IMG/VR virus record: IMGVR_UViG_3300027509_000002
Coordinates: 1 to 64,000 of that record
Strand: one strand, 5' to 3'
DNA length: 64,000 nt
DNA from: a virus
Part shown: positions 8,063 through 52,270 of the stretch, piece by piece
Numbering within the stretch: position 1 is the stretch's first letter
Layout: each line of letters starts with the position of its first letter
Program-made: the position numbers and the translations under genes
Notes under the pieces: model-generated
What the model was told of the DNA's origin: nothing
Database searches by the model: none
Seen by the model: the letters and a program-made list of their open reading frames with translations, nothing else

Positions 8063-8065
8063 ATT

Positions 8066-25643: not shown

Positions 25644-25693
25644 TTTTCTCACCTTCTTAGTTTCCTTTTTTCCAGTAATACACACATATATTA

Positions 25694-25709
25694 TTCTCTA
25701 AATAGAGAA
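25694..25709. promoter_or_regulatory. palindrome TTCTCTA-AA-TAGAGAA
   Basis: 7-bp perfect arms with a 2-nt spacer. Operator-like. Confidence 0.4.
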
Positions 25710-25760
25710 AAAAAGAGGTAGAACCAGTAGTGAACATTAATACTATTTAAAGGGAAAAAA

Positions 25761-25779
25761 AACCAAATATAATTTGGTT
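25761..25779. promoter_or_regulatory. palindrome AACCAAAT-ATA-ATTTGGTT
   Basis: 8-bp perfect arms with a 3-nt spacer, 82 nt upstream of the recA ATG. Operator-like. Confidence 0.45.
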
Positions 25780-25860
25780 AAAAAACTAATAGTTAAGTTG
25801 TTAGCAATTAGTTACCTACTTATAGTGCTATTTAGGATATTTATTATATATTGCAATAAT

Positions 25861-31697: not shown

Positions 31698-32645
31698 ATG
31701 TCTAGTATCTTAAATCCAGATCAAATCAATGAATTGTTGTCTATTATAGAAAGACAAAACATTGTTATGTTTTCCAACAAGTTTGGCAAAGATTTTTTAA
31801 ATCAAGAGCAACAACTAATGCTAAATGCCATGGGTGTAGATTTAGAAAATCAATACGATGCTACAAAAGATGTCGCTAAGATGTCTTTTCATTTGGGTAT
31901 GTTAAGTGAAGTAATAAAAGATACCGATTTAGAAAACCTGAACTTTGAGCACTTAAAGGAATATATCTCATCAGGTAAAAATATTCCATTAAACAAGGAA
32001 CAGCAGTTTGCACTAAAGAGTATTAAAAACCAATATTTAGGAGACATAAAGGCTAATGGTAACAGAATATTCTCTGACATTAACAATGTACTGGTGAATG
32101 CTGAAAAAGAAAATAGAGATGCTTACGAGAAAATAATACGAGATGAAATAGAGCAGGGTTTTTTAGATAAGAAAACTGTTTCTGAAATTGCACGTGATTT
32201 AGCACGTATGACAGGTGATTGGAATCGTAACTTTAGAAGAATGGTGGATTTTATCATGCATACTGCATACTCAGAGGGCAGGGCAGAGTATTTAAGAATG
32301 GAATACGGAGACGATGTGTTAGTGTGGGTACGTGTTTTTAATGGAGCTTGTAAGATCTGTAATAAGCTATATAAGAAGCCGAGAACAGGAGAGCCTAAAT
32401 TATTTAAGTTGTCTGAATTGAGAGCCAATGGAAATAATATAGGGTTTAAGCAAAAGGATTGGAAAGAGGTTGTGCCACCAATGCATCCACATTGTAGATG
32501 CTTATTAGAAAGATATGACGGTAAGTATAAGTGGAATAAAAAAACAAAGGATTTTACAGACGAAAACGAGAATTGGAAACCGCAACGCACAATAGATAGG
32601 CCAAAAGCCACTATTACTATTGGGGATGTAACTTATAAAGTATAG
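31698..32645 (+). CDS. MuF / SPP1 gp7-like minor head (morphogenesis) protein
   Basis: The C-terminal signature VVPPMHPHCRCLLERY is typical of the Mu F family. It lies downstream of portal. Confidence 0.75.
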   Translation: MSSILNPDQINELLSIIERQNIVMFSNKFGKDFLNQEQQLMLNAMGVDLENQYDATKDVAKMSFHLGMLSEVIKDTDLENLNFEHLKEYISSGKNIPLNKEQQFALKSIKNQYLGDIKANGNRIFSDINNVLVNAEKENRDAYEKIIRDEIEQGFLDKKTVSEIARDLARMTGDWNRNFRRMVDFIMHTAYSEGRAEYLRMEYGDDVLVWVRVFNGACKICNKLYKKPRTGEPKLFKLSELRANGNNIGFKQKDWKEVVPPMHPHCRCLLERYDGKYKWNKKTKDFTDENENWKPQRTIDRPKATITIGDVTYKV

Positions 32646-35395: not shown

Positions 35396-35938
35396 ATGAT
35401 TTGGTATTTTACGCCTTACGGAATCGATAAGGACTTAGGAAAAGCATATAATCAATATGCTAAATTGGTAACAGACAAAGACGATTGGATTTGTTTTTTA
35501 GATGCAGACACGTGTATAGGGCTTGTGCCTAAGTTTGGGCATGTATTGCAGGAAATAGTAGACTTATATCCCGATACAGGCTTATTTACATCCTACGCCT
35601 CTAGGATTGGCAATAAGCAACAAAGATTTGCAGGTAAAATAAGTGAAGATCCAAACATATTGAATCATAAAAAAATAGCCAAGTCTCAGGTTCATCACTA
35701 TAAAACGAGAGTAAAAGAACTGAATAAGATTATTTCAGGGCATTTAATGATGGTTAAGAAGTCAACTTGGGATGCCATTGGTGGAGCACCCGAAGGAATT
35801 GGTATTTTATCCATTGACAATTGGATTAGTAAAAGAATATTGCGTTCAGGTAAAAATATTTTGCTCATGGAGGGCATTTATTTGTTTCACTTTTACAGAT
35901 TAGATACTGGAAAACAAGACAAAAGCCATTTACTATGA
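35396..35938 (+). CDS. GT-A (family 2-like) glycosyltransferase
   Basis: DxD motif WICFLDADTC, and LMMVKKSTWDAIGG typical of GT2. Start moved to ATG 35396, downstream of the hairpin. Confidence 0.5.
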   Translation: MIWYFTPYGIDKDLGKAYNQYAKLVTDKDDWICFLDADTCIGLVPKFGHVLQEIVDLYPDTGLFTSYASRIGNKQQRFAGKISEDPNILNHKKIAKSQVHHYKTRVKELNKIISGHLMMVKKSTWDAIGGAPEGIGILSIDNWISKRILRSGKNILLMEGIYLFHFYRLDTGKQDKSHLL

Positions 35939-36678
35939 AAGACATACCGTTAATAATCCCAAATTTTAACCAGCTTACTTATTTAAAGAATCTTATTACA
36001 TGGTTTCATTATTACTATCCAGAAAATAAGGTTTTTGTGATTGATAATTTATCTAATTATAAACCATTATTGGATTGGTATGGCGATAACAAGGATCACC
36101 GAATACATATAGTGAGATGCAGTGTTAATAATTGCGGTGTCAACTTAGAAACGTTTATTAAAAAACATATACATGGACAATATAAATACTACTGCATTAG
36201 TAATGCGGATATAATGCCACACCCTAATGTACCTGAGAACTTCTTAGAGATCTTTAAGGACACTTTAAATACATATCGGTTACATAGAGTTGGTTTTCAG
36301 CTTATATTAGATGATTTGCCTGATTTCATAGATAATAGAGTGGAGATCTTAAAGAATGAAAGAAAGTTTTGGAAGAAGCCCATGGATATAATACACAAAG
36401 GAAAAAAATATCGTGGGTATAAAGCACCTATCGATTTAACATTTGCCCTTTATACTGTTAAAAATGGTGGCTGGAAATTTAAAGATAGAACCAAATCGAT
36501 TTGGGAAAATTCATTGAGGTTGTTTAGAGCGTTCCATTTTGGATGGTATATTGATCCTAAAACACAAATTCAAGAAACAATTCAGTATTTTAAAAACGCA
36601 AAAACAAAATCTGATAAAGCGAAATTGAAGGGAAATCTAAAGGGTATTAATACATATAGGCCAAAAACATTCAGATGA
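35935..36678 (+). CDS. GT-A (family 2-like) glycosyltransferase
   Basis: N-terminal IPLIIPNFNQLTYLKNLI..VFVIDNLSNY matches the GT2 nucleotide-binding pattern. Confidence 0.5.
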   Translation: MKDIPLIIPNFNQLTYLKNLITWFHYYYPENKVFVIDNLSNYKPLLDWYGDNKDHRIHIVRCSVNNCGVNLETFIKKHIHGQYKYYCISNADIMPHPNVPENFLEIFKDTLNTYRLHRVGFQLILDDLPDFIDNRVEILKNERKFWKKPMDIIHKGKKYRGYKAPIDLTFALYTVKNGGWKFKDRTKSIWENSLRLFRAFHFGWYIDPKTQIQETIQYFKNAKTKSDKAKLKGNLKGINTYRPKTFR

Positions 36679-37403
36679 CAATCTCTTTAACAACTATTAC
36701 TTTTTATAAGATTTATCAAAATCTCATATTCCAAAAGCCTTTTCATTATACTAGATTTGGGGACGGGGACTTAATGATTATGCATGGTAAGGATGAAAAA
36801 TTTCATGATGCATCAGAGGATTTAACAAGGGAGCTGATAGAGTCTTTTTTAATAGAAGATCCAAAATACTTGAAGGCGTTAAGTGGAAATTATGAGAATG
36901 AGGAACACATGTCTAAGGGTGTTTTTGCACCCTTTGATAACAAATCGGAGCTTGAAGATATGGCTTTTGCATTAAATCCTGAGAGAACCCAATACGAGAA
37001 CCCAATAGCCCTACATTATTTTTACTGCTTTGAATACCCATTGTTCCACAGAATGATGTTAAAGTACATTAAGCCAGCAAAAAAGATGTTTATTGGCTGT
37101 GTAGATAAAGAGGTTGCAGAAACATTATTTGGTAAGATTGATATTTATGTGCGAACAGCCCCATATAATTCCTACAAAGACATAGATAGTTGGTATTTGC
37201 AGGTATTGGACGGGATGCACGATGTCGATCTTATTTTACCCTGTACAGGCATATCTACAAGGGTGGTGCAAAAAAGAATATATGAAGCAGGCTTTAAGGG
37301 GTCATCAATAGATTTTGGAAGCATTATTGATAGTTTTGCTGGTTTTCCTACGCGTAAATGGATCAAAAAATTGGGTTTACATGAAAATAGAAGAGAAGGA
37401 TAA
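36675..37403 (+). CDS. possible GT-D (DUF1792-like) glycosyltransferase
   Basis: YTRFGDGDLMIMHG recalls the RFGDGE motif. This is weak evidence. The gene is embedded between GT genes. Confidence 0.3.
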   Translation: MTISLTTITFYKIYQNLIFQKPFHYTRFGDGDLMIMHGKDEKFHDASEDLTRELIESFLIEDPKYLKALSGNYENEEHMSKGVFAPFDNKSELEDMAFALNPERTQYENPIALHYFYCFEYPLFHRMMLKYIKPAKKMFIGCVDKEVAETLFGKIDIYVRTAPYNSYKDIDSWYLQVLDGMHDVDLILPCTGISTRVVQKRIYEAGFKGSSIDFGSIIDSFAGFPTRKWIKKLGLHENRREG

Positions 37404-38193
37404 AAAATCTGGTATTTATTGCATTAAAAATGTAATAAATGGAAAAATGTATATTGGCAGTGCCACATACATAAGGTCTAGGTGGAATTTACATAGAAAA
37501 CAATTAAAGGAGAATATGCATCATTCTAAAAAACTCCAAAGAGCATGGAAGAAGTATGGCGGTAAAAATTTTTTATTTGAAATATTAGAGTATTGCAAAA
37601 TTGATTTTTTAGTAGAAAGAGAGCAGTATTTTTTAAACAATATTTTAAAAGCAGATGAAGATTCAAGGTATTTTGAAGACTATGGATATAATATTTTGAG
37701 AACCGCTAATTCTCTTTTGGGATTTAAGCATTCAGATGAAACAAAAAAGAAGATGTCTGATGCAAAGATTGGCTATATTCCTTGGAATAAAGGTAAGTCT
37801 GGGTTTACAGTGTTAGATGACACAAAAAGAAAAATAAGCAGCACTTTGAAGGGATATGTAAGACCTTCATTTACCAAAGAACATAGGAAAAAACTTGCCG
37901 AGGCAAATAAAAATAGATCATGCGACAGAAGTGCTATGTCGAAAAAAGGGAATAAAAAACGAATGTCAAATCCCAAATTTCTGAAACATTTAGAAAACCT
38001 AGTGACTATGGCAACAAGTGCAAAACAAAAAATAGTTTGGAAAATTGATCCATTAACTAATAAAGTGGTGGAGCAATTTGATTCAATCAATGAAGCAGGA
38101 GAGTCTATTAATAAGGGTGCTCGCAAATATATACGAATTTCGTCTCGAAAAAAGACGACATATAAGGGGTTTTTATGGAAAATAGAGAGTTAG
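37381..38193 (+). CDS. GIY-YIG homing endonuclease with NUMOD3 repeats
   Basis: GIYCIKNVINGKMYIGSATYIRSRWNLHRKQL, then HSDETKKKMSDAKIGYIPWNKGKSG. Start at ATG 37381. Confidence 0.85.
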   Translation: MKIEEKDKKSGIYCIKNVINGKMYIGSATYIRSRWNLHRKQLKENMHHSKKLQRAWKKYGGKNFLFEILEYCKIDFLVEREQYFLNNILKADEDSRYFEDYGYNILRTANSLLGFKHSDETKKKMSDAKIGYIPWNKGKSGFTVLDDTKRKISSTLKGYVRPSFTKEHRKKLAEANKNRSCDRSAMSKKGNKKRMSNPKFLKHLENLVTMATSAKQKIVWKIDPLTNKVVEQFDSINEAGESINKGARKYIRISSRKKTTYKGFLWKIES

Positions 38194-38927
38194 TTGATGT
38201 GGTTTTTAAACTTGGTATTGGGTCAAATTATGCAGATAGGGAGCTAAGATATGCTCTTAGGAGTCTATATCATTTTAAGGACTTAGGAAAGGTTTTTGTT
38301 GTTGGACATAAACCAAGTTGGTTAAATGATGAGAAGGTGATACATATTCCAGCCACCGATCCCTACAAAGCCTCAAAAGATTGTAATTTAATCAATAAGC
38401 TCATATTGGCATCAGTACATCCTGAATTGTCAGATCAGTTTCTTAATATGTCTGACGATCAAGTATTTTTAAGAGATATAGATGCATCTTTTTTTATAAA
38501 ACCCATATATGACAATACACCCATGTCCAAAGCATTAGAGCCCAATAAGGTTTTGAATAAATGGCAGAAGAGATTAAGAAATACCAAAAATGCTTTAGTT
38601 AAGAATCATTACAGTTATAATTGCTATGAAACCCATATGCCCTGTTTGATCAATAAGCATGATTTTATGACAACTATATTTAAATATGATTATGGATTTG
38701 ACATTGGATATGTGGGCAATACTCTGTATTACAATACTTTAAGGGCAAATGGGAGGTCTTTAAGGCCAATAGATCTTATCAGGTTAGGAAAGAAAACGTT
38801 AGCCTCACAGATCATTAGAGAAGCCACTGGAAAAGTCTTTTTGAACTACACCAATAAAGCCATGGATGAAAATCTTTTGAATGCATTAGATCATTTGTTT
38901 CCTAATAAATCAGTATATGAGAAGTAA
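38175..38927 (+). CDS. hypothetical protein, possible sugar/phosphosugar transferase
   Basis: Last gene of the GT island. NMSDDQVFL is a DxD-like motif. No firm family assignment. Confidence 0.25.
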   Translation: MENRELVDVVFKLGIGSNYADRELRYALRSLYHFKDLGKVFVVGHKPSWLNDEKVIHIPATDPYKASKDCNLINKLILASVHPELSDQFLNMSDDQVFLRDIDASFFIKPIYDNTPMSKALEPNKVLNKWQKRLRNTKNALVKNHYSYNCYETHMPCLINKHDFMTTIFKYDYGFDIGYVGNTLYYNTLRANGRSLRPIDLIRLGKKTLASQIIREATGKVFLNYTNKAMDENLLNALDHLFPNKSVYEK

Positions 38928-38951: not shown

Positions 38952-39452
38952 ATGAAAATCAGTGATCACATATCATATAGGGAAGCAATCAAATCAAATA
39001 CAGCAATTAGGTACGGAATCTTAAATTTACCAGATAAAGATCACATTGAGGCCATGAAATTACTTGCTGAGAAAATTTTTGAGCCAGTGAGAAAAGTCAA
39101 CAATAAGCCTATTGCAGTCACTTCATTCTTTAGAAATGAGCGACTTAATAGCATTATTGGTGGATCTAGTAGTTCACAGCACATGTCAGGTGAAGCAATG
39201 GATATAGATGCAGATATTTATTCCAATGGTATTACAAATGGCTGGATTTTTCACTATATTAGAAAAAATCTTGATTTTGATCAATTAATTGCCGAATTTC
39301 CAGATAAATATGGCCGTCCTAGATGGATTCATGTATCGTACTCGAAAAGAGGAAATAGAAATATGGCATTGGTGGCAAAGAAAAAGAAGTTTGGCAATAA
39401 AATAAAGACCGTATATGAAATATATGATCCTAAAAAACATTTAATTAAGTAA
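38952..39452 (+). CDS. peptidase M15 family endolysin (cell-wall peptidase)
   Basis: SSSQHMSGEAMDIDA and RWIHVSY form the H..D..H zinc site typical of M15 / VanY-like phage lysins. Confidence 0.7.
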   Translation: MKISDHISYREAIKSNTAIRYGILNLPDKDHIEAMKLLAEKIFEPVRKVNNKPIAVTSFFRNERLNSIIGGSSSSQHMSGEAMDIDADIYSNGITNGWIFHYIRKNLDFDQLIAEFPDKYGRPRWIHVSYSKRGNRNMALVAKKKKFGNKIKTVYEIYDPKKHLIK

Positions 39453-39453
39453 A

Positions 39454-39585
39454 ATGGCAAAGATTACTGTATCAGGCAAGCAAGTGTCTGCAAAAAAGAA
39501 AAGAAAAGGTGTACACTCTAAAAAGAAAACATCTAAAAATATCGGTGCAAAAAACTATAAAAAGCCCTCTGTAGGACAGGGATAA
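39454..39585 (+). CDS. 43-aa highly basic peptide (below ORF-track cutoff)
   Basis: Product is MAKITVSGKQVSAKKKRKGVHSKKKTSKNIGAKNYKKPSVGQG. It exactly fills the gap between the endolysin and the first giant ORF. Confidence 0.45.
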   Translation: MAKITVSGKQVSAKKKRKGVHSKKKTSKNIGAKNYKKPSVGQG

Positions 39586-39596: not shown

Positions 39597-41414
39597 ATGA
39601 GCAATATACTAGAATTTGGTGAAGAGTTTGATTATCAGGATATAAATGCCCCTAGACGGGAGCAAATGCAGAAGTCATTTATTCAAGATGAAGAGTCAAT
39701 TGAAAAGGGAAACGTGAAGGGTCATTGGAGAACCACTAAGTCTGGCAAAAAGGTGTTCGTGAAAGACCATAGCAATGCGAAAACCAAAAAAGATTCTTTA
39801 TCAGCAAAAGAAAAAAGAGGCATAGAAGAAAGAACAAAAGAGAGAGCTGAAAAAATTGATTATTTATCTGATTATGAAAAACAGCCTAAAGAAGTACAGG
39901 CTATCATGGAGACTCTATCAGAGGGTGATGAATATGGATCTGATTCACCAGATGGATTAGAAGCAGCTCAAAAGAAACTTGCTGCTATTGGCTGGAAAAT
40001 GGAATACGGATTAGATGGTGGAGTGCATACATTAGAGCCGATTCAAAACAAAAAAAAAGCACTGCCAAAATATGATCAGTCATCCATAGATCAGGCAGCT
40101 AAACATATTTCTAGTATGACGGGCACACGAGATTCTGCCGTGAAGGATTTTGCCTCTGAAAATAACATTGATATAATGAAATTGGCTACGTATGTGGGGT
40201 CAAAGAAAATAAAACCAATGGATTTTTCGACAGCTATTTCAGGAAACAAGGGTAATCCATATGCTACAAAAATTGTAGATGCACTCACCAAGTCTCATGA
40301 GGAAACCATCGAAAAGGGTGGCTCAAAGCAAATCACCATTACACACAACAAAACAGGAAAAGAATTAACTGGTAGGTGGGTAACAATTAATGGTTCACAC
40401 GTATTTGTTTCAGGCGGTGGAGTTGAAATAGGAGCTAAAGAGATTAAGAACTATAGTGAAGGAAAAGGTGGTTCAGGTAAGTCAGAAGACACTAAGGGTA
40501 AAAAGGCTCTAAAGGAAGTGCAGAATAAAGACGATTTTGCTAGAAAAAATATTTCTGGTGATGAGCGTAGAGCTTTAAAGTCTAAATACGATGGTATGAG
40601 CAAGGATGAGCGAGCAGGACGTACTTGGGAGGCTTATTTGAACGATGAGGCCAAGAAAAAAGGAGGCGATAGTTCAGAAAAGACATCAGAAAAGACATCA
40701 GGAAAGAAGTCGGAGATTGAGGCCGTTAAACCTGGTGAAACAGTAACAGAAAAAGACGTTAACCCAGTAGAAAAAAAAGACGAGTCTTATAAGAAAACCG
40801 ATAAGTGGAAGGCTTTACATTCAAATGACAAAAAATCTATAGAAGCAGCAAAGAATTTAAAACATCTTGATTTAGATAAACTCACGTCTTCTGAATATTC
40901 TGATTTACAGGAAATGTTTGTTATAGTGGAGATGGAAATGCCAAGATCAGAAATAACCGCAGGAGATGAGATTGCTTTTAGATTACAATATGCCAATGCC
41001 GATGAAAAATTTAATGGGGTTTCTTTAAAAGACATGTATAAACTAGATGCAGGCAACGCAGCCGATTCTAAAGCAATGAATAAATGGTCAGAGGCGAAAG
41101 AGAAGAAAGTAAACGATGCCCTAGATGCATTTGAGAAGGAGGTTCAGAAAGAAATAGATGAAAAAAATCAAGTGGTACAGCAGGTAGCTAAGGAGGGCGT
41201 GAATATGAAGAACATTGCATCCATTATCTCTTCATCAATAGCGATTGAATACTTCACAGAAGAACTCAATGAAGACATATTAAATCAGCTTACTGCATTA
41301 GACAAGAAATACAATAAGCCTGTAGATCCAAATCAGCAAAGAATGTTTAAATCAGTTCAATCTATCACAGATAGAATTGAAGGTATATCGGACAAACTTG
41401 ACAGCCTTATATAA
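39597..41414 (+). CDS. K/E-rich polyvalent-type virion protein 1 (605 aa)
   Basis: Low-complexity charged linkers. Two IEKG plus hairpin modules: GHWRTTKSGKKVFVKDH and GRWVTINGSHVFVSGG. Confidence 0.6.
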   Translation: MSNILEFGEEFDYQDINAPRREQMQKSFIQDEESIEKGNVKGHWRTTKSGKKVFVKDHSNAKTKKDSLSAKEKRGIEERTKERAEKIDYLSDYEKQPKEVQAIMETLSEGDEYGSDSPDGLEAAQKKLAAIGWKMEYGLDGGVHTLEPIQNKKKALPKYDQSSIDQAAKHISSMTGTRDSAVKDFASENNIDIMKLATYVGSKKIKPMDFSTAISGNKGNPYATKIVDALTKSHEETIEKGGSKQITITHNKTGKELTGRWVTINGSHVFVSGGGVEIGAKEIKNYSEGKGGSGKSEDTKGKKALKEVQNKDDFARKNISGDERRALKSKYDGMSKDERAGRTWEAYLNDEAKKKGGDSSEKTSEKTSGKKSEIEAVKPGETVTEKDVNPVEKKDESYKKTDKWKALHSNDKKSIEAAKNLKHLDLDKLTSSEYSDLQEMFVIVEMEMPRSEITAGDEIAFRLQYANADEKFNGVSLKDMYKLDAGNAADSKAMNKWSEAKEKKVNDALDAFEKEVQKEIDEKNQVVQQVAKEGVNMKNIASIISSSIAIEYFTEELNEDILNQLTALDKKYNKPVDPNQQRMFKSVQSITDRIEGISDKLDSLI

Positions 41415-42895
41415 TGGAGTTTTTTGACGACATAGAAAAAGCTCATGATCCCTCAAAAGGGGGTAAATTGGTTAAGAAAACCATTGTAGATAAAACTGGT
41501 AAAAGAACCACTAAGTGGGTCAGCAAGGAACAAGCATCTAAGATGCAGGGAGGCCAAAACACTGATCCAGAAGAAGCACCAGTAGATACTACTAAAATCA
41601 CTGACTTACCAAGTAACCACAAAGCTGCTTTAGAGGTTATTAAGGAGTCTATGGACAATGGGGACTTAGATCATGCCTTAGAGCTTGCCAATAAGCTACC
41701 AGACGAGGTAAAGGAATATATACCTAAAGAGGATTGGAAAAAGCTATTGACTAAACGTGAAGAAGAGTCGGAGCAGGATGCAGAAAATAAGTCAGAGCCT
41801 AAGTCAGAGACTAAGAAAGAGACTAAGCCGAAAAAAAAGAAAGATACAAAAGACGGTATTGAGTATGCAGATGAGGAAATAGTGGGGGCAATTGGCGATC
41901 AATCTAATGCCAAAATGGATGCAAAAATAGATGGAAAAGTAGTTGGTACAGTTTCTTATTCTATATATGAAGGCCAGCCATCAATCCAAATGATAGAGGT
42001 TGGTAAAGATCAAAAAAGAAAATCGATTGCCACTAACTTAATGAAAAATCTACAGAAGAAATATCCAGATGTAGAAATTGACTTGGGTGGCTTTATGACA
42101 GAGGAAGGATCTAATTTTATATCAAAGCTAGATCGAGAGTTTGTCCCCAATACAGCATATAGTGATACAGAAGAACTAATATCTCAGTTACAACAGCAAA
42201 GTGATAAAATCATTGAGGAAATTTCCAACAATAATTACACCAATGCTGATACATTAGATGACATTAGCGACACTATCTATGATTTGAAGGTGGAATTAGA
42301 GGAAGCTGAAAAAGGCAAATATATTATCAATACTAAGGATAAAAAAGTATTGACGGATAAAGAAATATTTGCCGAATATGACCAAGAAGTATCAAAATAT
42401 TCAGAAGATCAGGTTTATAGCTTAAATGAATATAGAGGTGCAGACTATAGAGATATTAATGCAGATCTTAGAGATGACAATGAACTTAATGAAGATAATC
42501 AGCGAATAGTGGACGACATAGATTCGGCCTTTATTCCATCAAAGCAAGATATGGTTCTTACTAGAGGCATTGCAGGTAAATCAGATGAAAAGATAAAGTT
42601 TTTTCTTGATTTAGAAGTAGGTGATGAATATACAGACAAGGGATATTCTTCAACTAGCGTAAGTGCTGATGCCGTAGATGGGTTTTTAGATAACATGTCA
42701 CCACAGTTTAGTAAATCTAAAATGGTTTTAACAATTGTGGCTAAAAAGGGTTCAAAAATTGTGCCTATGCAAAATGTGGGGTCTGAACACAGCAATGAAG
42801 AATATAAAAAGGAAAAGGAAATTTTATTACCAAGAAACAGCAAATTTAAGGTGTTATCTAAAACAAATGGTGCAATGAAAGTGCAGTTATTATGA
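41414..42895 (+). CDS. GNAT-like plus ADP-ribosyltransferase (R-S-ExE class) fusion protein
   Basis: The ART triad is LTRGI (R384), YSSTSV (STS 413-415) and EKEILLPRNSKF (E467-x-E469), preceded by YRGADYRDINADLR. The middle region VGTVSYSIY..KRKSIATNLMKNL is GNAT-like. Confidence 0.75.
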   Translation: MEFFDDIEKAHDPSKGGKLVKKTIVDKTGKRTTKWVSKEQASKMQGGQNTDPEEAPVDTTKITDLPSNHKAALEVIKESMDNGDLDHALELANKLPDEVKEYIPKEDWKKLLTKREEESEQDAENKSEPKSETKKETKPKKKKDTKDGIEYADEEIVGAIGDQSNAKMDAKIDGKVVGTVSYSIYEGQPSIQMIEVGKDQKRKSIATNLMKNLQKKYPDVEIDLGGFMTEEGSNFISKLDREFVPNTAYSDTEELISQLQQQSDKIIEEISNNNYTNADTLDDISDTIYDLKVELEEAEKGKYIINTKDKKVLTDKEIFAEYDQEVSKYSEDQVYSLNEYRGADYRDINADLRDDNELNEDNQRIVDDIDSAFIPSKQDMVLTRGIAGKSDEKIKFFLDLEVGDEYTDKGYSSTSVSADAVDGFLDNMSPQFSKSKMVLTIVAKKGSKIVPMQNVGSEHSNEEYKKEKEILLPRNSKFKVLSKTNGAMKVQLL

Positions 42896-45800
42896 AAGAC
42901 AGATTTATATCCCAAGACAGCAAAGGCTTAGAAAAAGAGATAAGTGTAAAAACAGAAGAGGTTGTTGAAAAAGGACATTCAAATACTAAACTGGTTAAGA
43001 AGCAGGTATTGGTGAATAGGAATGGCAAATCTTTTTATCAAACAGTATATGTTAACCCCGAAACAGGGGAGGAATCAGATACACCAAAAGGAGAAGAGAT
43101 TTCACCCGTTTTAAACGGTATGGAGATTATCAAGTATTCTGATAAAGCCATGCTTATAAAGGGCGATACTTATGTAAACAAAGAGGATTTAAGAGCAGTT
43201 AAAAAGGAAATCGGTGTTGGTAGCTGGAACGCTAAATTGCAGGGGTGGATATTTCCCATTAAATTCAAAGATACTATTCTTGGCTCTTTATGGTCAAAGC
43301 AAATGGAAAAGGGCAATGAAGAAAAAGCCAATGCCATAAAGAACCAAAAGAATGCATCACTTGAAACAGGTGATTTAGCCAGCATTGATGGCCAAGTTGG
43401 TGTTGTAGAAGAAGAAGTTTCAGATTCTAATGGGGTTAAATACAATATTTCTTTGGAGGATGGAAATAAATTGTCTGGCGTAAGCGAAAAAGCTATTTCT
43501 GTAGATCCTGAAACAGACGACAATAAGGTAGCCGAAGCCGTTAATGAAGCCAATGAATTTAATCGAAATAAGACGGCTAAAAAAATATATGGCATTAAAC
43601 CCATAGAAAATGTTCATGAATACACTCTTTCCGACTATTTAGGTTTACATGGAATAACTCAGGAAGAGATAGATAATGCAGTAGCTAAATTAAACTCAAA
43701 GAAGCCAGCTAAGAAACGATCTTCTTTTTCTGGATCATCTACTAGCACAAGATCAACGTCTGGTGAACCCAAAGAGCTCAGTAGGCAACAATTGATCAGC
43801 AAACTAATATATAAACACTATCAATCTGTACAGAAAGCGTTGAACGAAGGCAAATCGGTGTCAGAAAATGTATTGTCCATCTATCCAGATCTAACGCCAC
43901 AAGAGACAGAAGAAAAAGAAGAAGCGGTAGCGGAAGTACCAAAAGAAAAAGAAGCGATGTCAGAAGAGACAAAGCGTAAAATTTCTGAGGCATTGAAGGG
44001 TAAAAAAAGAGGGGGCAAAGAAGTAGAAGAGTGGAAAGAAAAACTATCTGCATTAGAAGTTGAGTTGGAGATCAATCAAAAGGAATTTTATGATTTTAAT
44101 AGGCCAGAATATTCCGATCCTGATTATAACGAACGAAATGTACAGCTTGGAGAGCTACGTACAAAAATAGACGGTCTTAAAAAGTCAATTCATGATACAA
44201 AAAATACCATAAAGGCATTAGAAAACGGAGGATCTATAATGTCTGTAGAAGATAAGTTGGGGAATATACATGATAATATTCCTAGCTTTATTGGAACTTC
44301 TACTGAGGATGTTATGTATGATGAAGATACTATACTAAATAAAGAAAAGCCAGATTTTATACCAGAAATGGACGAAGACTTGCTTGAAAGAGGGAAGTAT
44401 ATGCCAGATGCCATAAAAATCGGTGCTGATCAATATTTGGTGGCTACAAGAAAATATACTGAGAGTTCCAGAAAAACTGGTGAAAGAGGTTATGGAGAAT
44501 TCGTAAAAGAATATAATCCCAATGAACCAGGATATGCCGTTATGAGTCTTGATCAACTTGTTTTAACACAAGACTACTATATTACAAGAGCAAAGGCAAA
44601 AAATAAACAAAAAGCTGCCAAAGACAATCAAAGACAATTAGATCATTGGAATGGCTTATCTGATAAAAGAAAAGAGTATTATTTAATGCAGAGGGGACTA
44701 TATAGAAAACTATCTGCTAAAAAGAAAAAGGAAATTAGCTCAGAGCAATGGGATAGCATGTCATGGCAAGATAGAGAAGAGCATTATAAGCCAATTAAAA
44801 AATTTGGTGTAAAAAGAGTAAGTGTTTATTCTTCTGATAAAACAATGGCTAGTTCGTTTCACTCTATGTATGAAAGATTTACTGATCCAGAAGCAACTAG
44901 AGTTAATGGGGCTGGGAAAACTCTTAAAAGAGGCGAAGGTAGGGGATATGCTCATCCAATTGTTGTAAAAGAGTGGAATACTTTAAGAAATGATTTGGAG
45001 ATAAAATCCAACGATATTAGAATGTATCGTGAAGAATTGGGCGATGGTACTTTTTCAAAGGGAAGAGAAACAGCTTATGGAGACAGTGGTGTTTCCAATG
45101 CCCTTTTAGATTCTCATGGTCTTAAAGTAAAAAGGCAAAATGGAGATGAAATATCGCCAAAAGAAATAGATGAAATTAAGAGTTCTTGGGAAGATGTTAC
45201 GAAATCATTTGGCCCACTAAAAGAAAACGCCAAAGAATTTGGATTAAAAATATCTCATTCTGGGGATAAATTAATGCATGCCAGAAAAGCTCTTGGACTT
45301 TATACCCCAGCACACAAAGCAATTGGTGTAACTGCTAAGGTGGGTCAAGATCAATTTAGCTTTACCCTTGGTCATGAAGTCGCACACTGGATTGATAATT
45401 CATTAGGCAAAAAAGAGGGTAGAAGATTTGCATCTGATAATTTTGAGTCTACTGCTGGCCAAATAGCAAAGACACTTAGAGAAAAAATGAATGGTGAAAA
45501 GCCAAGTAAGTACTATAACAGTACTTGCGAGTGCTTTGCTAGAGCCTTAGAGCAATATCATGCTGTAGAAAGCGTTGGTGAAACTGCTGCTAGAGGCGAA
45601 TCAGGAAAGCCATATTTTGACATGGACTATTATGCATCTAAGTCGGTTTACGATAATGACATAAAGCCATTGATCGAGAAGTTTTTAGGTGAGAATAAAG
45701 AATTTTTTAAATCATTCGGAGCTATGGATATTACAAAAGGATTTATTAAGACATTAATGGATGCAGGATCAAAGTTTCTAGGATCTGATAAGAAAGAGAA

Positions 45801-46281
45801 AACTAAAGATTTTGCTGACTGTATTGTATTTAATAAAAAGGCAGAGGTGCTATTGTTGAAAAGAGCAGATAATGGGAAGTATTGGCTACCAGGTGGAAGC
45901 GTGGACACTGATGACACCAATCATGAAGTAGCAGCCTTTAGAGAGCTTGTAGAGGAAACCAATCTAATTCCAGACATACACGCCTTTAGTGATACAAAAG
46001 TGGCTAAGAATGGCGGTAATATTTACGTATATGTAGTAATGCCAGAAACAGAAATGGTAGTCTTAGATCCAGATGAACATACTGATTTTGGTTGGTATAA
46101 CATGTCAGAAATTGAAGATTTAGCTATTTTATTCGGATCTCATGATCTATTAAGAGAAATGGTAGGTAAGGCTAAGCACACTCTTTTTGACAGCGTTGCT
46201 CAGGCAGCATTTAACTCTGGACAAATAACAGAAGATGAGTACCTTAATGGTCTTAGTTTTCTAAAGAACGGACACCTATAG
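42892..46281 (+). CDS. 1129-aa polyvalent protein with HExxH metallopeptidase-like motif and C-terminal Nudix domain
   Basis: NUMOD3-like SEETKRKISEALKGKKRG. HEVAH at 45373-45387. Nudix box LPGGSVDTDDTNHEVAAFRELVEETNL starts at 45892. Confidence 0.7.
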   Translation: MKDRFISQDSKGLEKEISVKTEEVVEKGHSNTKLVKKQVLVNRNGKSFYQTVYVNPETGEESDTPKGEEISPVLNGMEIIKYSDKAMLIKGDTYVNKEDLRAVKKEIGVGSWNAKLQGWIFPIKFKDTILGSLWSKQMEKGNEEKANAIKNQKNASLETGDLASIDGQVGVVEEEVSDSNGVKYNISLEDGNKLSGVSEKAISVDPETDDNKVAEAVNEANEFNRNKTAKKIYGIKPIENVHEYTLSDYLGLHGITQEEIDNAVAKLNSKKPAKKRSSFSGSSTSTRSTSGEPKELSRQQLISKLIYKHYQSVQKALNEGKSVSENVLSIYPDLTPQETEEKEEAVAEVPKEKEAMSEETKRKISEALKGKKRGGKEVEEWKEKLSALEVELEINQKEFYDFNRPEYSDPDYNERNVQLGELRTKIDGLKKSIHDTKNTIKALENGGSIMSVEDKLGNIHDNIPSFIGTSTEDVMYDEDTILNKEKPDFIPEMDEDLLERGKYMPDAIKIGADQYLVATRKYTESSRKTGERGYGEFVKEYNPNEPGYAVMSLDQLVLTQDYYITRAKAKNKQKAAKDNQRQLDHWNGLSDKRKEYYLMQRGLYRKLSAKKKKEISSEQWDSMSWQDREEHYKPIKKFGVKRVSVYSSDKTMASSFHSMYERFTDPEATRVNGAGKTLKRGEGRGYAHPIVVKEWNTLRNDLEIKSNDIRMYREELGDGTFSKGRETAYGDSGVSNALLDSHGLKVKRQNGDEISPKEIDEIKSSWEDVTKSFGPLKENAKEFGLKISHSGDKLMHARKALGLYTPAHKAIGVTAKVGQDQFSFTLGHEVAHWIDNSLGKKEGRRFASDNFESTAGQIAKTLREKMNGEKPSKYYNSTCECFARALEQYHAVESVGETAARGESGKPYFDMDYYASKSVYDNDIKPLIEKFLGENKEFFKSFGAMDITKGFIKTLMDAGSKFLGSDKKEKTKDFADCIVFNKKAEVLLLKRADNGKYWLPGGSVDTDDTNHEVAAFRELVEETNLIPDIHAFSDTKVAKNGGNIYVYVVMPETEMVVLDPDEHTDFGWYNMSEIEDLAILFGSHDLLREMVGKAKHTLFDSVAQAAFNSGQITEDEYLNGLSFLKNGHL

Positions 46282-46333
46282 TATATAACACACTGTTTCC
46301 CAACAAGTTGTGTAAATAAGATATAATGTACAT

Positions 46334-46360
46334 GCATGTTCACGTGAGCGTGTCACATGC
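46334..46360 (+). other. GC-rich hairpin in an intergenic region
   Basis: GCATGT/ACATGC outer stem and CACG/CGTG inner stem with a 4-nt loop. No T tract follows. Confidence 0.5.
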
Positions 46361-46398
46361 CATATATAGTCTTTGTAATCGGTTAATAATGACTTAAC

Positions 46399-46407
46399 TA
46401 TTTTTAT
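46399..46407 (+). promoter_or_regulatory. promoter-like TATTTTTAT box
   Basis: 15 nt upstream of ATG 46422. Confidence 0.3.
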
Positions 46408-46421
46408 ACAAAGAAACTATT

Positions 46422-49019
46422 ATGGAATTCCTCAATTTTGATAAAGACAACAATACATTCTTATTCAAGAATGAATATGATCACATAATTAGAAAATCAG
46501 CAAGCCAAGTAATTGAGCAACATCCTGATTTAGCTATTGAGATCACAAAAAATATATTTGATTTTGTAGAAAAGGGTGCAAAAGCAAACGCTGGCGAAAT
46601 TAGAGAGCATGGTGGTGTAAAGATGCAAAAATTAGCATCTGGAAAATGGGCTAAGGTAGGTTCATCTAAGGGCAAATCAGATGCCAAGGGAAGCGAATCT
46701 ATCCAGAATGCCATCAATGTACGAGAAAAGGCTTTAAAGATGGCTAGAGATAGCGGTAACGAAGGCATTATTTCTAAACTATCTACGCAGTTAACGGATC
46801 TTAAAGCTCAATTGAAGGGTGCTAAAACTACTGTAGAGAAATCAGCAGAGCAGGATTTAGAAAAAGCTACATACAAAGATACTCCTGAAAATAGAAAGTT
46901 AGGTAGAGTTGGTAAAGAATGGGGTGGAAAGAAAGAAGGACAAAAAAACACTGATGGATCACAATCTAGTGGCAAGACCGTTAAAATATCTGAGAATTTA
47001 CGTTTGGAGGGCACACCAAATAAAGAGTTTGCCGAAGGAATTTTAAGTGCTCTTAGGTCATACCCAAAAGGGCATCATGCTAGGCCATTTATGCCAAATA
47101 AAGAATATGGTTCTGTTTATGGTGTAAAACTGACAACTCTTAAAGAAACGACCGAAAAAGATTTAGAAAGATTGGAGATTTTTGCTAGAAAAATATTGTC
47201 TGACGATCCCAATATAAAAGTTAAAAAATCAGACGATCAAGACATAGAGAAAGCACAGAAGTATATTAGACGAACTGGAACGCCAGGAAACTATAAGTAC
47301 GAATATGCTGATTCAAAATCAAATGTAAGAGGCCACAAAAATACTGTAGTAGAATCTGATGAAAATAAGATGAAAATCTTACAGGGTCAATTAGAAGAAG
47401 ATACTATCAAAAGAGCAAAGGCAAAAGAAGAGGGTAATTCTACCAAAGAAGCACATTTTGATCATGAAGTGAAAAGGCTTAGAAAAGAGATTGGAGAATT
47501 GAGAGCTAACGGTACAGACGAAAAAAAGGAATTAGAGGCACATAAGGAGAGCGATAAAAAGACTCCAAGCCCAGAAGCGGTCTTTAAGGAAGTATATGAC
47601 AAATATAACGCTAAGGATTATTTTGGGGAAAAGAGCCGCATAGAGTCAGCCGTTAAACAGTGGAAGTCTTTTCTTGAAAGAGGTGATGAAGGTGCAAAAA
47701 AATATACTAAAGAAGACGTAGTGCAGCATATGGAACGTGCCATTGCAGCCGAGGCAAAGCACACTTTTGATACACTAAAGACAGCTATTGATAGTAAAGA
47801 TATAAACAAGTTAAAATCAAGAGTTCGTTATGATCAGCCATATACAAAAGAGCTTTTCTCAAAATTAACAGGTATTAGTGTACCCAGCACAAATGCACAA
47901 ATTAATACCATGCTGGACCAATTTGCATCCGACAGTAAAAAAAAAATTGAAAAATCAGATAGCCAAGAAATAGAAAAGGCTCAAAAAAAAGGGTACTACA
48001 GAACCCTAAAAAGTGGCAAAAAAGTATATGTTAAGCCACATCAAGATTCGAGAACAAAGAAAGAGGAAAAGACATTTGTAATACGATCTAGGGTAAAGGA
48101 TGCCAACAATAAACTATTAGATGACGTGCATGTATCTGTGCAAGCCAACAGTGCACAGGAAGCAGAAGAAAAAGCAGCAGCTAAGCTAAGTGAAAATCCT
48201 GCATACCCTAAAGATGGCAGATTGGAATTAGTAGATGTAAATATTGCTGATTCAAAGAGTTTAGAGCAAAAAAGGGCTCAGGGTAAATTAGACTTACTAC
48301 GCAAAAGAATCACTAAAGAAGTTAAGAAGCTAGAACAAAAAGATCTATTGGATATAGAACGAAAAATGATAGAGAGCACAGTTAAAGAATGGCAGAATTG
48401 GGCAAAAGAGTATGAGAAAGCTGCCAATAGCACTCCACTTCCAATAAAGAATATGCCTGAGTTTATGAGCTATTTGAACAGCTTCTACGGTAAAGATGGT
48501 GTATATCCAAATAAAATGGGGGAAGATGTCAAAGAATCTGATGTGATTGATGCTATTAAATATGCTGCATCAAAAGGATATAATTTTGACAATGGTGACA
48601 GTATGGATCGTGAAACGGTTAGAGACATATTAACTGAGCGAAATCTGATTGATCCTAATTATGACAATAGCCATGCCAATGAAGAGAAAATAGTCGTTCC
48701 TGCTGATGAAGCACCGAAACAGCCAGACCATACAGTAGCAAAAACTATTTTACAGCAATTGGGTGGAAGTCAATTTACGGCTATGACAGGAGCAAAGAAC
48801 TTTGGAGCAGATGCAAATAAGTTAATGTTTAAAATAGCGAAAAATGCCAAAAACGTAACTCATGTTTCCATCACTTTAAACGGGAAAGATTTATATGACG
48901 TGAAATACATTAATGTTAGAGGATCTAATATAAAGACCATGAGCGAAAGCAATGATATTTATGCTGATATGTTAGTAAACGATTTTGAACAAAATACAGG
49001 AATGTACACAAGAATTTAA
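46422..49019 (+). CDS. K/E-rich polyvalent-type virion protein 4 (865 aa)
   Basis: Internal repeat KSD(D/S)Q(D/E)IEKAQK. The module GYYRTLKSGKKVYVKPHQDSRTKK matches the 39597 product. Confidence 0.6.
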   Translation: MEFLNFDKDNNTFLFKNEYDHIIRKSASQVIEQHPDLAIEITKNIFDFVEKGAKANAGEIREHGGVKMQKLASGKWAKVGSSKGKSDAKGSESIQNAINVREKALKMARDSGNEGIISKLSTQLTDLKAQLKGAKTTVEKSAEQDLEKATYKDTPENRKLGRVGKEWGGKKEGQKNTDGSQSSGKTVKISENLRLEGTPNKEFAEGILSALRSYPKGHHARPFMPNKEYGSVYGVKLTTLKETTEKDLERLEIFARKILSDDPNIKVKKSDDQDIEKAQKYIRRTGTPGNYKYEYADSKSNVRGHKNTVVESDENKMKILQGQLEEDTIKRAKAKEEGNSTKEAHFDHEVKRLRKEIGELRANGTDEKKELEAHKESDKKTPSPEAVFKEVYDKYNAKDYFGEKSRIESAVKQWKSFLERGDEGAKKYTKEDVVQHMERAIAAEAKHTFDTLKTAIDSKDINKLKSRVRYDQPYTKELFSKLTGISVPSTNAQINTMLDQFASDSKKKIEKSDSQEIEKAQKKGYYRTLKSGKKVYVKPHQDSRTKKEEKTFVIRSRVKDANNKLLDDVHVSVQANSAQEAEEKAAAKLSENPAYPKDGRLELVDVNIADSKSLEQKRAQGKLDLLRKRITKEVKKLEQKDLLDIERKMIESTVKEWQNWAKEYEKAANSTPLPIKNMPEFMSYLNSFYGKDGVYPNKMGEDVKESDVIDAIKYAASKGYNFDNGDSMDRETVRDILTERNLIDPNYDNSHANEEKIVVPADEAPKQPDHTVAKTILQQLGGSQFTAMTGAKNFGADANKLMFKIAKNAKNVTHVSITLNGKDLYDVKYINVRGSNIKTMSESNDIYADMLVNDFEQNTGMYTRI

Positions 49020-50758: not shown

Positions 50759-52222
50759 ATGAACAACACTTTAGACGATATGCAAAACGGATTCGCTGGT
50801 GACGGTGGGCAAGATGCAGAGTACTTATTGAAAGCTATGCAAGCTGGTCACATCACAGGACGTGAAACCGCAAATCAGTCTTTAACGCAAGAGCCGTTAA
50901 AAGCTGAATCTTTAGAAAAGACATTGAAATTATTAGATCACAGAACAAGTGATTTAAAATTAATCAATGCAATGCCAAAAATGACTGCTTATAACACAGT
51001 TGAAGAATTTATTCAGTTAGAGTCTTATGGTAATCAACGTGGAGGTTTTTACGGGGAAGGAGAACTTTCTGATGTAGAAGATTCTAAGTATGTAAGACGT
51101 GCTGAAAAGATCAAGTACTTACAAGTAACTGGATCTGTAACTCTTCAAGCACAAATGGTGAAATCTTTTGTTCCAGCAATGGCTAAAGAGGTTTCTAACA
51201 AAGTAATGTGGATTCAGCGTAGAGCGAATACCTTTATCACTAAAGGAAACGAGAATATCGTTCCAGAAGAGTGGAATGGTTTATATGCACAGCATGCTTC
51301 TATTGGAACTGGTAGCGGTTTCTTATATAATAACCTTGATGCGTATTACGGATCAGAAGTTGTTGTAGATTTAAGAGGAAAGTCTCTTAAACAAGAGGAT
51401 GTAGAAGACGGAGCAGTAAGAGTAGATGCTAATTTTGGTATTCCAACTCACTTATTTGCTGCACCAGTTGTAATCTCTGCTTTAGCAAAAGATTATTACA
51501 ATGATCAGCGTATCTTAATGAACGGTGGTGGATATGACGGTGTTATTGGAACAGTTCCAAAGGCTATTTCTACTACTATGGGTGACATCACTCTAGGAAA
51601 CGATAAATTCATGGCTGCTGAGCCTGCTAAGTTATCATCTAATACTGCTACAAGTGTGAAAGCACCTGCTGCCCCTGTAGCTGATGCTTCACCTGCACTT
51701 GCTACTGATGGTTCATCTGTACTTGAAGCTGGTGAAGATGGCCCAGTATTTTATGCTGTGTCTGCCATCAATAGATATGGAGAGTCTGCATTAACAGTTC
51801 AAGGAGCTGCTGTAACTCTTACAGTTGGATCATCTGTAGATTTAGATTTCTCTGCTGGTGTAGGATCTGCATTCGCTGCAACTGCATTTAGAGTATATAG
51901 AACTAAAGTAAACGGTGCGAACACTGGTAAGTTTTACCCAATCTTTGAAGTATCTGCTGCTGAATTAGCTTCTGGCTATGATAGTGCTGCACCTGGTCTT
52001 GCAAGAGACAGACATAGATTACTTCCTGACTGTGAAACTGCATTCTTAGCTGAGATGACAGAAGAAGCAATGAGCTTTAAGCAACTTGCACCTGTATCTA
52101 AGTTAGACCTTGCTGTAGTTGGATTGAGTAGATCTTTTGTAGCATTCTTATTTGCAACGCCTCAGTTGTATGCACCTAAGAAAATGGTTAAGTTTGTAAA
52201 CGTTGGGAAAACTCTTAACTAG
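50759..52222 (+). CDS. major capsid protein (HK97-fold type)
   Basis: 487 aa, immediately after the protease/scaffold gene. Locally higher GC and Ala/Gly/Val-rich. A strong terminator follows. Confidence 0.75.
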   Translation: MNNTLDDMQNGFAGDGGQDAEYLLKAMQAGHITGRETANQSLTQEPLKAESLEKTLKLLDHRTSDLKLINAMPKMTAYNTVEEFIQLESYGNQRGGFYGEGELSDVEDSKYVRRAEKIKYLQVTGSVTLQAQMVKSFVPAMAKEVSNKVMWIQRRANTFITKGNENIVPEEWNGLYAQHASIGTGSGFLYNNLDAYYGSEVVVDLRGKSLKQEDVEDGAVRVDANFGIPTHLFAAPVVISALAKDYYNDQRILMNGGGYDGVIGTVPKAISTTMGDITLGNDKFMAAEPAKLSSNTATSVKAPAAPVADASPALATDGSSVLEAGEDGPVFYAVSAINRYGESALTVQGAAVTLTVGSSVDLDFSAGVGSAFAATAFRVYRTKVNGANTGKFYPIFEVSAAELASGYDSAAPGLARDRHRLLPDCETAFLAEMTEEAMSFKQLAPVSKLDLAVVGLSRSFVAFLFATPQLYAPKKMVKFVNVGKTLN

Positions 52223-52245: not shown

Positions 52246-52270
52246 AAAGCCCTCTTATGAGGGCTTTTTT
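52246..52270 (+). terminator. Rho-independent terminator after the capsid gene
   Basis: AAAGCCCTC, loop TTAT, GAGGGCTTT, then a T run. Confidence 0.85.

Follow-up and report, generated by a model that had tools for sequence, protein, structure and literature searches.

In a 64,000-nt stretch of DNA from an uncultured ~99-kb phage (hereafter the window), four consecutive large open reading frames (ORFs) rich in lysine (K) and glutamate (E), O1 to O4, lie between the endolysin gene and the genes for the prohead protease and the major capsid protein (MCP). They probably encode head-module cargo of the polyvalent type, which would be packaged into the prohead, cut by the S78-type prohead protease, and injected into the host. 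The block belongs to a known class of proteins, and the packaging concept is not new (Iyer 2017, 2022). Judged from the sequences, what is new is a short motif, [ILVMF]-E-K-[G/A/S], which is common to the four ORFs and the protease/scaffold protein and was overlooked in an earlier note on this DNA. A protein family with a 910-aa zincin core and several mobile modules are as yet unnamed.

The sizes and the location of the four ORFs given in the earlier note turned out to be exact. All are on the + strand, i.e. O1 at 39597-41414 (605 aa), O2 at 41414-42895 (493 aa), O3 at 42892-46281 (1129 aa), and O4 at 46422-49019 (865 aa). Start and stop codons overlap by 1 nt at the O1/O2 junction and by 4 nt at the O2/O3 junction, and O4 is preceded by a gap of 140 bp. 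The same DNA is present on a 98,959-bp metagenome contig of the Joint Genome Institute (JGI; 3300009073, Ga0114957_1000161), and the four gene lengths are identical on a contig from another JGI sample, showing that the array is not an assembly artefact. A megablast search with the 9.4-kb block against phage genomes yielded no DNA-level match. The K+E fractions are 0.22-0.25 for O1-O4, compared with mostly 0.13-0.20 for the ~70 other ORFs of the window. The short repeated modules described previously are real, as aa 21-116 of O1 align with aa 506-598 of O4 (E 9e-10). The 3,092 residues of the block are covered to ~10% by above-threshold Pfam domains, or to ~27% if the zincin domain is added, in agreement with the earlier statement that most residues carry no motif that can be named.

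Enzyme domains had been proposed for each of the four ORFs, and this held for O2 and O3 only. O2 begins with MEFFDDIEK↓A (the arrow marks the predicted cleavage position), followed by a basic module, a GNAT-like domain, and an ADP-ribosyltransferase (ART) domain of the VIP2/C3/ExoS type. The ART domain (42380-42859, + strand, aa 323-482) was identified with Pfam ADPrib_exo_Tox (PF03496; E 6.4e-16, 58.7 bits vs. a cut-off of 23.4), phrog_3895, and an alignment with ExoS. All of its catalytic residues can be read from the sequence, i.e. R (LTRG), S-T-S (YSSTSVS), and E-x-E (EKEILLPR). The GNAT-like domain (41873-42070, + strand, aa ~154-219) matched phrog_3810 (acetyltransferase) and Pfam Acetyltransf_1; the latter match (PF00583) is marginal, comprising only the 54 residues aa 166-219 (E 6e-5, 23.7 bits vs. 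a cut-off of 20.7).

O3 consists of a propeptide-like N-terminus (VEK↓G at aa 25), a core (aa 32-942), and a C-terminal NUDIX hydrolase domain (45814-46116, + strand, aa 975-1075). The latter was detected with Pfam NUDIX (PF00293; E 4.6e-13, 49.8 bits vs. a cut-off of 21.1), phrog_1198, and Nudix structures in the PDB, and the R-E-L-V-E-E part of the Nudix box (G-x5-E-x7-R-E-U-x-E-E-x-G-U) is present. A scan with NCBIfam revealed nothing beyond Nudix and GNAT. The core contains a large zincin metallopeptidase domain (44209-45726, + strand, aa 440-945) with the sequence HEVAH at aa 828-832 (nt 45373-45387). It matched phrog_22901 (5e-61) and, in Pfam, only weakly DUF6782, and the profile of the O3 family had no match among PDB sequences. 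The HExxH is invariant in all 31 family members, as are H789, D835, and E880. D835 is the third residue after HExxH, and an Asp at this position is a signature of a widespread phage-type polyvalent metallopeptidase (MPTase) (Iyer 2017, PMC5512222).

The earlier note had suggested structure prediction followed by Foldseek as a check, and the result for O3 was supportive. AlphaFold2 modelling of aa 440-950 with the family alignment gave a confident single domain (pLDDT 89.6, pTM 0.86). Foldseek matched this model exclusively to zincins in the PDB, i.e. anthrax lethal factor (E 2.5e-3, ~280 columns), PPEP-1, IrrE/PprI, selecase, and SPRTN. Among predicted viral structures the best match was a Leptospira phage protein (E 4e-29), and weaker matches included MuF-fused "head morphogenesis" proteins and "large polyvalent protein associated domain" (LPD) proteins. 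According to the model, aa 440-945 of O3 fold as a zincin metallopeptidase with the HExxH and the downstream Glu ligand (E880). A NUMOD3-like motif, MSEETKRKISEALKGKK (43957-44007, + strand, aa 356-372; Pfam NUMOD3 E 3e-4, 21 vs. 20.4 bits), is located further upstream in the core and is nearly invariant across the core family (MSEETKRKISEALK), which hints at a DNA-binding element.

A database search retrieved 30 metagenomic homologues of O3 with identities of 35-52%, all of them collinear with aa ~32-942, i.e. the ~910-aa core. Most are 840-1100 aa long and represent the core alone, and eight have lengths of 1400-1730 aa. In six of these large homologues, Pfam identified ART-PolyVal, InPase, Kinase-PolyVal, and 2H phosphoesterase domains (PF18760, PF18823, PF18762, and PF13563, respectively) as well as NUDIX, DUF5661, and DUF6496. 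The seventh again contains InPase and DUF6496, and the eighth has only weak LPD1/ParB-like matches; weak LPD1 matches were found in just two homologues. The accessory domains thus swap freely within the family. ART-PolyVal, InPase, and Kinase-PolyVal are Pfam names that originate from the description of polyvalent proteins (Iyer et al. 2017, PMC5512222).

The unrelated enzymes on one polypeptide in a head operon, i.e. GNAT-like plus ART in O2 and zincin plus NUDIX in O3, represent the defining syntax of these polyvalent proteins (Iyer 2017). The similarities include the chaining of ART, GNAT, zincin MPTase, and NUDIX domains among portal, terminase, and head genes, the Asp three residues after HExxH, the fusions within the O3 family, and the many uncharacterised, LPD-like domains. 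In contrast to the described examples, the content is distributed over four adjacent genes, the MuF domain is encoded separately 7 kb upstream, no Pfam LPD or MPTase-PolyVal model was significant on the window proteins, and the candidate processing sites match those of the protease/scaffold protein rather than MPTase autoprocessing. At least two disparate activities per polypeptide were found in O2 and O3, none in O1, and in O4 the picture is partial, with three unnamed non-catalytic modules. The packaging context is present (portal at 29181, MuF-like gene at 31698, protease at 48985, MCP at 50759) and recurs in three related loci (L005-L007), and the connection to the shared domain network is provided by the fusions of the O3-core homologues and the HExxH..D signature. 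The polyvalent architecture proposed in the earlier note is therefore strongly supported for O2 and O3 by domains, context, and family fusions; O4 is included by association, and O1 has no independent support.

A database search with full-length O4 returned only two proteins and was dominated by low-complexity words; therefore, it was replaced by an exhaustive HMMER search. The latter matched 3,654 representative clusters, which resolved into three mobile globular modules, i.e. alpha (47574-47942, aa 385-507), a helical domain of ~120 aa, beta (48447-48689, aa 676-756; phrog_7799), and gamma (48729-49016, aa 770-865; phrog_9437), a very common alpha+beta domain of ~95 aa, all on the + strand. 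Alpha occurs alone as proteins of 128-133 aa, gamma is also found alone, and all three are present in other multi-module proteins in varying order. None of them is matched in Pfam. When the short basic modules, O4 alpha, and the N-terminal domain of O3 were compared singly with Pfam (E <=10), a single irrelevant and very weak match was obtained (DUF859, E 0.078). The AlphaFold2 model of gamma had a pLDDT of ~97. A search of the PDB with the model of beta plus gamma revealed nothing below E 0.3, with faint resemblance only to LolA, MRP1/2, and the MotA DNA-binding domain. In Rhodobacter phage RcSpartan, solo gamma genes are surrounded by small genes of the early/replication region, and in Pasteurella phage Pm86 they lie beside a regulator. 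The position in early regions is as expected of a host-interaction module that would here be delivered by packaging rather than by early expression. A 1671-aa protein (P0047), which was found as a match of alpha, represents another lineage of giant multi-module phage proteins. Its modules are separated by a recurring [FY]-A-[KED]-G-G (AKGGEAGD, ADGGEISS, AKGGGIDD, AEGGEAKE), possibly a comparable linker or the cleavage signal of a different protease.

For O1, tblastn found no homologue in phages, aa 85-275 had none either, the PDB contained no sequence hit, and no counterpart exists in five related loci. O1 is thus an orphan as far as these searches reach.

The gene for the prohead serine protease (S78/HK97-gp4 type), which has an acidic scaffold-like tail, follows O4 on the + strand (phrog_1028, 1.5e-31). 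The listed start is a TTG at 48985 that overlaps the end of O4, and the gene ends at 50721. The gene call in the second sample and the N-termini of homologues (MSNKFNFFVP..., NNFKFYVEAD...) point to the ATG at 49030 (MTPKNNFKFYINAD) as the probable true start. The protease domain spans 49030-~49600. The window protease itself has no Pfam hit; it is 43% identical to the protein of L007, which passes Peptidase_S78 (PF04586; 23.3 bits vs. a cut-off of 21). The MCP gene is located at 50759-52222 (+ strand; phrog_752, 4.5e-61). In tblastn searches the capsid protein was 58.6% identical to that of Chryseobacterium phage MA9V-3 (PV245944; locus L001), 39% to those of Bacteroides DAC/SJC phages, e.g. 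DAC19 (MT074139; locus L010), and ~30-34% to those of SPO1-like Bacillus phages, so that MA9V-3, followed by the DAC/SJC phages, is the closest cultured relative by this protein.

The MuF/SPP1-gp7-like minor head protein is encoded by a separate gene (31698-32645, + strand), as stated in the earlier note, and is conserved next to portal genes in four related loci. Its matches are below the curated cut-offs in Pfam (PF04233, 19.8 vs. 29.6 bits, E 1e-3) and TIGRFAM (TIGR01641, 21.5 vs. 39.65 bits, 2e-4); the PHROG minor-head/head-morphogenesis families 115/4728 match at 2e-8. The middle part of the family profile phrog_595 (positions 181-329) aligns with the MuF-like gene and its C-terminal part (positions 306-499) with O2, suggesting that members of this family are fusions of MuF and ART, which in the window are encoded by two genes.

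Four related loci (L004-L007) contain an O3-family gene. In L005, L006, and L007 it is located immediately upstream of the protease (plus scaffold) and MCP genes, with a portal or MuF-like gene further upstream, and in L004 it is found near the terminase and portal genes. In five related loci no counterparts of O2 and O4 were found, as for O1 and in contrast to the MuF-like gene, suggesting that these three are variable cargo and not essential for assembly. MA9V-3 and DAC19 lack an O3 homologue. In both phages a NUDIX gene lies directly upstream of the protease/scaffold/capsid genes (L001 14001-14708 and L010 11390-12070, respectively), in L006 a NUDIX gene (7654-8778) is found two genes before the protease, and in the window NUDIX is fused to O3. 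Proximity of NUDIX to the protease is therefore a conserved trait of this phage lineage. The position of the cargo block is occupied in MA9V-3 (L001 9609-13988) by a 1459-aa protein of low K/E content, which in our reading looks like an unrelated protein of the tail-fibre/depolymerase type; the slot upstream of the protease thus takes very different genes. In L005, the MuF-like gene (2499-4463) contains an intein (PF14890), and the prohead protease (16207-18339) has 710 aa with ILEK↓A, a "WVTMNGAKVLIGGDG" module, and more sequence in its C-terminal part, i.e. the protease itself carries cargo-like modules.

These comparisons bear on the question of whether O1-O4 could be internal scaffold or inner-core proteins for head assembly, with incidental or inactive enzyme domains. 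The free exchange of accessory domains among the homologues is typical of effectors and not of such proteins, the ART and the zincin have retained their catalytic residues and NUDIX the core of its box, and neither the O3 core, which is missing in MA9V-3, the closest relative by capsid, nor O1, O2, and O4, which have no counterparts in related loci, seems to be needed for assembly. The O3 core is conserved like a structural gene, O1 and most of O4 lack a catalytic domain, and the protease/scaffold protein has the same K/E-rich composition and motif, all of which would fit a structural role. Taken together, we regard this explanation as unlikely. A role as tail-fibre or tape-measure proteins, named in the earlier note as the result that would speak against packaged effectors, was rejected, because catalytic domains are present and profile searches gave no fibre or tape-measure hits.

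The motif [ILVMF]-E-K-[G/A/S] links the cargo block to the protease. It is present in 11 copies in O1-O4 and in 8 copies in the protease/scaffold protein, where it is densest, whereas all the ~70 remaining ORFs together have only 3. The 19 copies in O1-O4 plus protease compare with ~2 expected from composition-preserving shuffles. An unbiased 4-mer scan identified IEKG (5 vs. 0.19 expected) and IEKA (4 vs. 0.21) as the two most over-represented words. Both ends of the motif show strong conditional preferences: a hydrophobic residue (phi, i.e. I/L/V/M/F) followed by E-K is succeeded by G/A/S in 19 of 23 cases (background 0.21, p 4e-10), and x-E-K-[GAS] is preceded by I/L/V/M/F in 19 of 26 cases (p 7e-8). 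The 30 O3 homologues contain 78 copies, compared with 19 +/- 4.5 in shuffles. Enrichment is also found in related loci, most clearly in the protease of MA9V-3 (8 vs. 0.24) and in L005, where the protease and the scaffold protein have 4 copies each and the polyvalent protein has 8 vs. 1.0. L006 and L007 show it less strongly. In the scaffold proteins of L006 and DAC19, phi-x-K-[S/G/A] recurs with a looser periodicity, and a phi-x-K-A site at the homologous position directly after the protease domain is conserved in five phages.

The arrangement of the sites is regular. All four ORFs open with an aromatic/acidic peptide of 7-50 residues that ends in the motif, and the start of O2 resembles the N-termini of the proteases of relatives (FFVPVEVDDIEK↓A). 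Eight of the 11 sites in O1-O4 have a short basic Gly-turn module no more than a few residues downstream, and five or six types of this module can be recognised. In O1 the sites are IEK↓G at aa 35 and 238, each with such a module behind it (GHWRTTKSGKKVFVK and GRWVTINGSHVFVSGGG, respectively). O4 has six [VIL]EK[GAS] sites, at aa 49, 138, 146, 275, 509, and 517, and four kinds of basic module. Two more sites are the first halves of tandem pairs (VEKSAEQDLEKA, IEKSDSQEIEKA), and these pairs as well as the basic modules recur in homologues and in proteins of MA9V-3 and DAC19. Both phages share the protease family and the syntax, the proteins concerned being those of 520 aa and 235 aa (NUDIX) in MA9V-3 and DAC19_202, 206, 208, and 209 in DAC19. 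In 16 of 19 O3 homologues with a recognised LVKK module, the motif and the module are in the fixed register phi-E-K-[AGS]-x-K-D-x-S-K followed by LVKKxVxVxRxGKxFxQTVYV.

The simplest reading is that phi-E-K↓small is a cleavage site of the prohead protease, with an invariant Lys at P1 and a small residue at P1'. HK97-type proteases cut after Lys; a literature search for Lys-specific cleavage rules of S78 proteases found nothing usable. If the motif is such a site, the block would be head-packaged polyprotein cargo. A different enzyme has to be considered, because the zincin is a hub domain of polyvalent proteins and has been proposed as an autoprocessor (Iyer et al. 2017, PMC5512222), and the catalytic residues of the O3 zincin are invariant. 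O3 could thus process the packaged cargo before or after injection, with the prohead protease not being involved. However, MA9V-3 and DAC19, which lack an O3-type zincin, retain the motif in the protease/scaffold protein and in small cargo proteins, and its density is highest in the protease/scaffold protein. Therefore, the prohead protease is favoured, and processing by the zincin alone seems very improbable.

The distribution of the motif also speaks to a second alternative, i.e. that it is just a helix or linker feature of K/E-rich sequences and that O1-O4 are not packaged but are late- or separately expressed cytoplasmic enzymes for takeover or metabolism. The other K/E-rich ORFs of the window (K+E 0.22-0.29, ~1,170 aa in total) contain zero copies, the preferences at the two ends are strong, and the motif is specifically common to the protease/scaffold proteins of five phages. 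In addition, the O3 family is fused to domains typical of packaged polyvalent proteins. It is true that genes without a structural function (glycosyltransferase-like, GIY-YIG endonuclease, endolysin) are also found in the late region and that the gap of 140 bp before O4 could accommodate a promoter, but on balance we do not expect this alternative to be correct.

Several points weigh against packaged, cleaved, and injected cargo. O1 had no Pfam or NCBIfam hit and no enzyme domain, and no recognisable catalytic domain was found in O4, only the three unnamed modules. In O2, the acetyl-CoA motif of the GNAT-like domain (Q/R-x-x-G-x-G/A) is degenerate (K-R-K-S-I-A), and in the Nudix box of O3 the spacing of the upstream G-x5-E is off by one and Asp replaces Glu. 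The Foldseek matches of the zincin outside its family are weak (E ~1e-3, TM ~0.25). The motif was first spotted by eye and hence defined post hoc, though the 4-mer and conditional tests are unbiased, and its fixed register with the LVKK module would also be explained if it were part of a structural unit and not a site of cleavage. The cleavage rule is not backed by a site in the capsid protein, because the lysine of SLEK↓T, which we had considered as a maturation site and rejected, is not conserved in L005 and L006. Last, the packaging, cleavage, and injection of O1-O4 are themselves inferred.

Other phages offer parallels for such a pathway. In phage T4, Alt and the internal proteins IPI-III are encoded with the head genes, include an ART, lose short N-terminal targeting propeptides through cleavage by the prohead protease at a short motif, and are injected with the DNA. 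The T4 enzyme, gp21, cleaves L/I-x-E motifs behind the Glu, whereas here a conserved Lys precedes the small residue, the protease is of the S78/HK97 type, and cleavage is predicted; furthermore, the T4 proteins have single domains, in contrast to the multi-domain chains of the window. The ejection (E) proteins of SPN3US and phiKZ comprise many head-internal proteins that are cut at a short motif, and their C-terminal mature parts are ejected (PMC10052503, PMC5694885). As predicted for O1-O4, one protein at times has several cut sites. There is no sequence relationship, these are jumbo phages with a T4-gp21-like protease and another cleavage motif, and their cleavage has been demonstrated by mass spectrometry, whereas that in the window is predicted only.

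ARTs and Nudix proteins of myoviruses are often packaged into the head, either as products of genes located among the head genes or as fusions with MuF, portal, or capsid-processing peptidase, and Nudix domains that adjoin or are fused to the capsid-processing serine peptidase have been described (Iyer 2022, PMC9503650). The VIP2/Alt-type ART and the Nudix in the late head cluster of the window agree with this, as does the Nudix beside the protease in MA9V-3 and DAC19. In contrast, MuF and ART are separate genes in the window, and NUDIX is fused to the zincin core and not to MuF, portal, or protease. The comparison with P1 Dar made in the earlier note found no support in domain content. The Dar proteins (DarA, DarB, DdrB) are also large, head-packaged anti-defence proteins, and DdrB has a C-terminal MPTase; however, no domain of the P1 Dar proteins (DarB methyltransferase-helicase, DarA, DdrB ParB-like) was detected in the Pfam, PHROG, and NCBIfam scans of the window proteins, so that the resemblance is conceptual only.

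It is plausible that O1-O4 and the protease and capsid genes form one late transcription unit. This is suggested by the overlaps of O1/O2 and O2/O3 and by the lack of a convincing + strand terminator before the end of the MCP gene. A strong terminator-like hairpin of the intrinsic type (52246-52267, + strand) directly follows the capsid gene, and the only other + strand match in the 38.9-52.4 kb region is a weak 5-pair hairpin inside this gene (51913-51926). A scan for sigma-70 promoters was uninformative (41 sites vs. 46 expected).

Under the favoured explanation, i.e. packaged cargo of the prohead protease, O1-O4 would be co-transcribed with the protease and capsid genes, their products would enter the prohead, and the S78-type protease would cut after the Lys of the motif. 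Cutting would strip the short N-terminal aromatic/acidic propeptides and free about ten fragments, most of which would begin with a basic Gly-turn module that, speculatively, might hold them on the packaged DNA. By analogy with the class, the fragments would be ejected with the DNA at infection and act before phage gene expression. The ART and the GNAT-like domain might then modify host proteins, and NUDIX might destroy ADP-ribose/NAD-derived or other NDP-X molecules. The 910-aa zincin core with the NUMOD3-like motif could be a DNA-associated protease acting on host proteins or on the cargo itself, and the O4 modules and O1 would be further effectors of unspecified activity.

In a more far-reaching version, about which we are doubtful as a whole, the block would be a genuine polyprotein system inside the head that follows a grammar of its own. 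Its unit would be an aromatic/acidic targeting propeptide, the phi-E-K↓G/A/S site for cutting by S78, a basic Gly-turn "tag", and a cargo domain. There would be at least five interchangeable tags (LVKKxVxVxRxGKxFxQTVYV, G[HY][WY]RTxKSGKKV[FY]VK, GEIRExGG...GKW, KYIRRxGxPGNxKYxY, and YxDxxxNRKLGRVGxxYG), which would tether the released effectors to the packaged DNA or otherwise license their ejection. The same grammar would operate in Bacteroidota and other phages, and modules such as the 910-aa zincin core and alpha, beta, and gamma of O4 would represent new effectors against host defence.

The surroundings of the block contain further genes on the + strand. The upstream boundary is formed by the M15 peptidase endolysin (38952-39452; Pfam Peptidase_M15_3, 1e-13; phrog_894, 6e-27), and the portal gene is located at 29181-30776. 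Between the endolysin and O1, a 43-aa ORF (39454-39585), which is also called as a gene by JGI, encodes an extremely basic peptide (MAKITVSGKQVSAKKKRKGVHSKKKTSKNIGAKNYKKPSVGQG), which might condense DNA, be an internal head peptide, or have no role at all. A 518-aa protein (33203-34759), encoded between the MuF-like gene and the cargo block, matches phrog_1745 ("DNA transfer protein", E 4e-153), has a calcineurin-like metallophosphoesterase signature (Pfam E 5e-4), and may be another early-acting or packaged protein. Judging from the Pfam annotation of the JGI gene calls, non-structural genes interrupt the head operon at 35935-38927, i.e. two glycosyltransferase-like ORFs (35935-36678 and 36675-37403), a GIY-YIG/NUMOD3 homing endonuclease (~37381-38193), and a Stealth_CR2 protein (~38199-38927). 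At ~25300-25800, the coding strand switches from - (~4.1-25.3 kb) to + (from 25.8 kb) and the GC skew reverses, which could mark a region of divergent promoters or a boundary related to replication.

Effectors that are packaged in the head act before phage gene expression, which makes them prime candidates for counter-defence. Possible routes are the ADP-ribosylation of host factors, the destruction of NAD/ADPR-derived immune signals, and the proteolysis of DNA-bound defence proteins. The abundant but unnamed modules, i.e. gamma (within the 3,654 clusters matching O4), alpha, beta, and the 910-aa zincin core, are available for anti-defence screens. The locus is a compact and readable example in a poorly studied lineage of Bacteroidota phages. 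If mass spectrometry confirms the phi-E-K-small rule, packaged and processed cargo would be predictable from sequence alone in this lineage.

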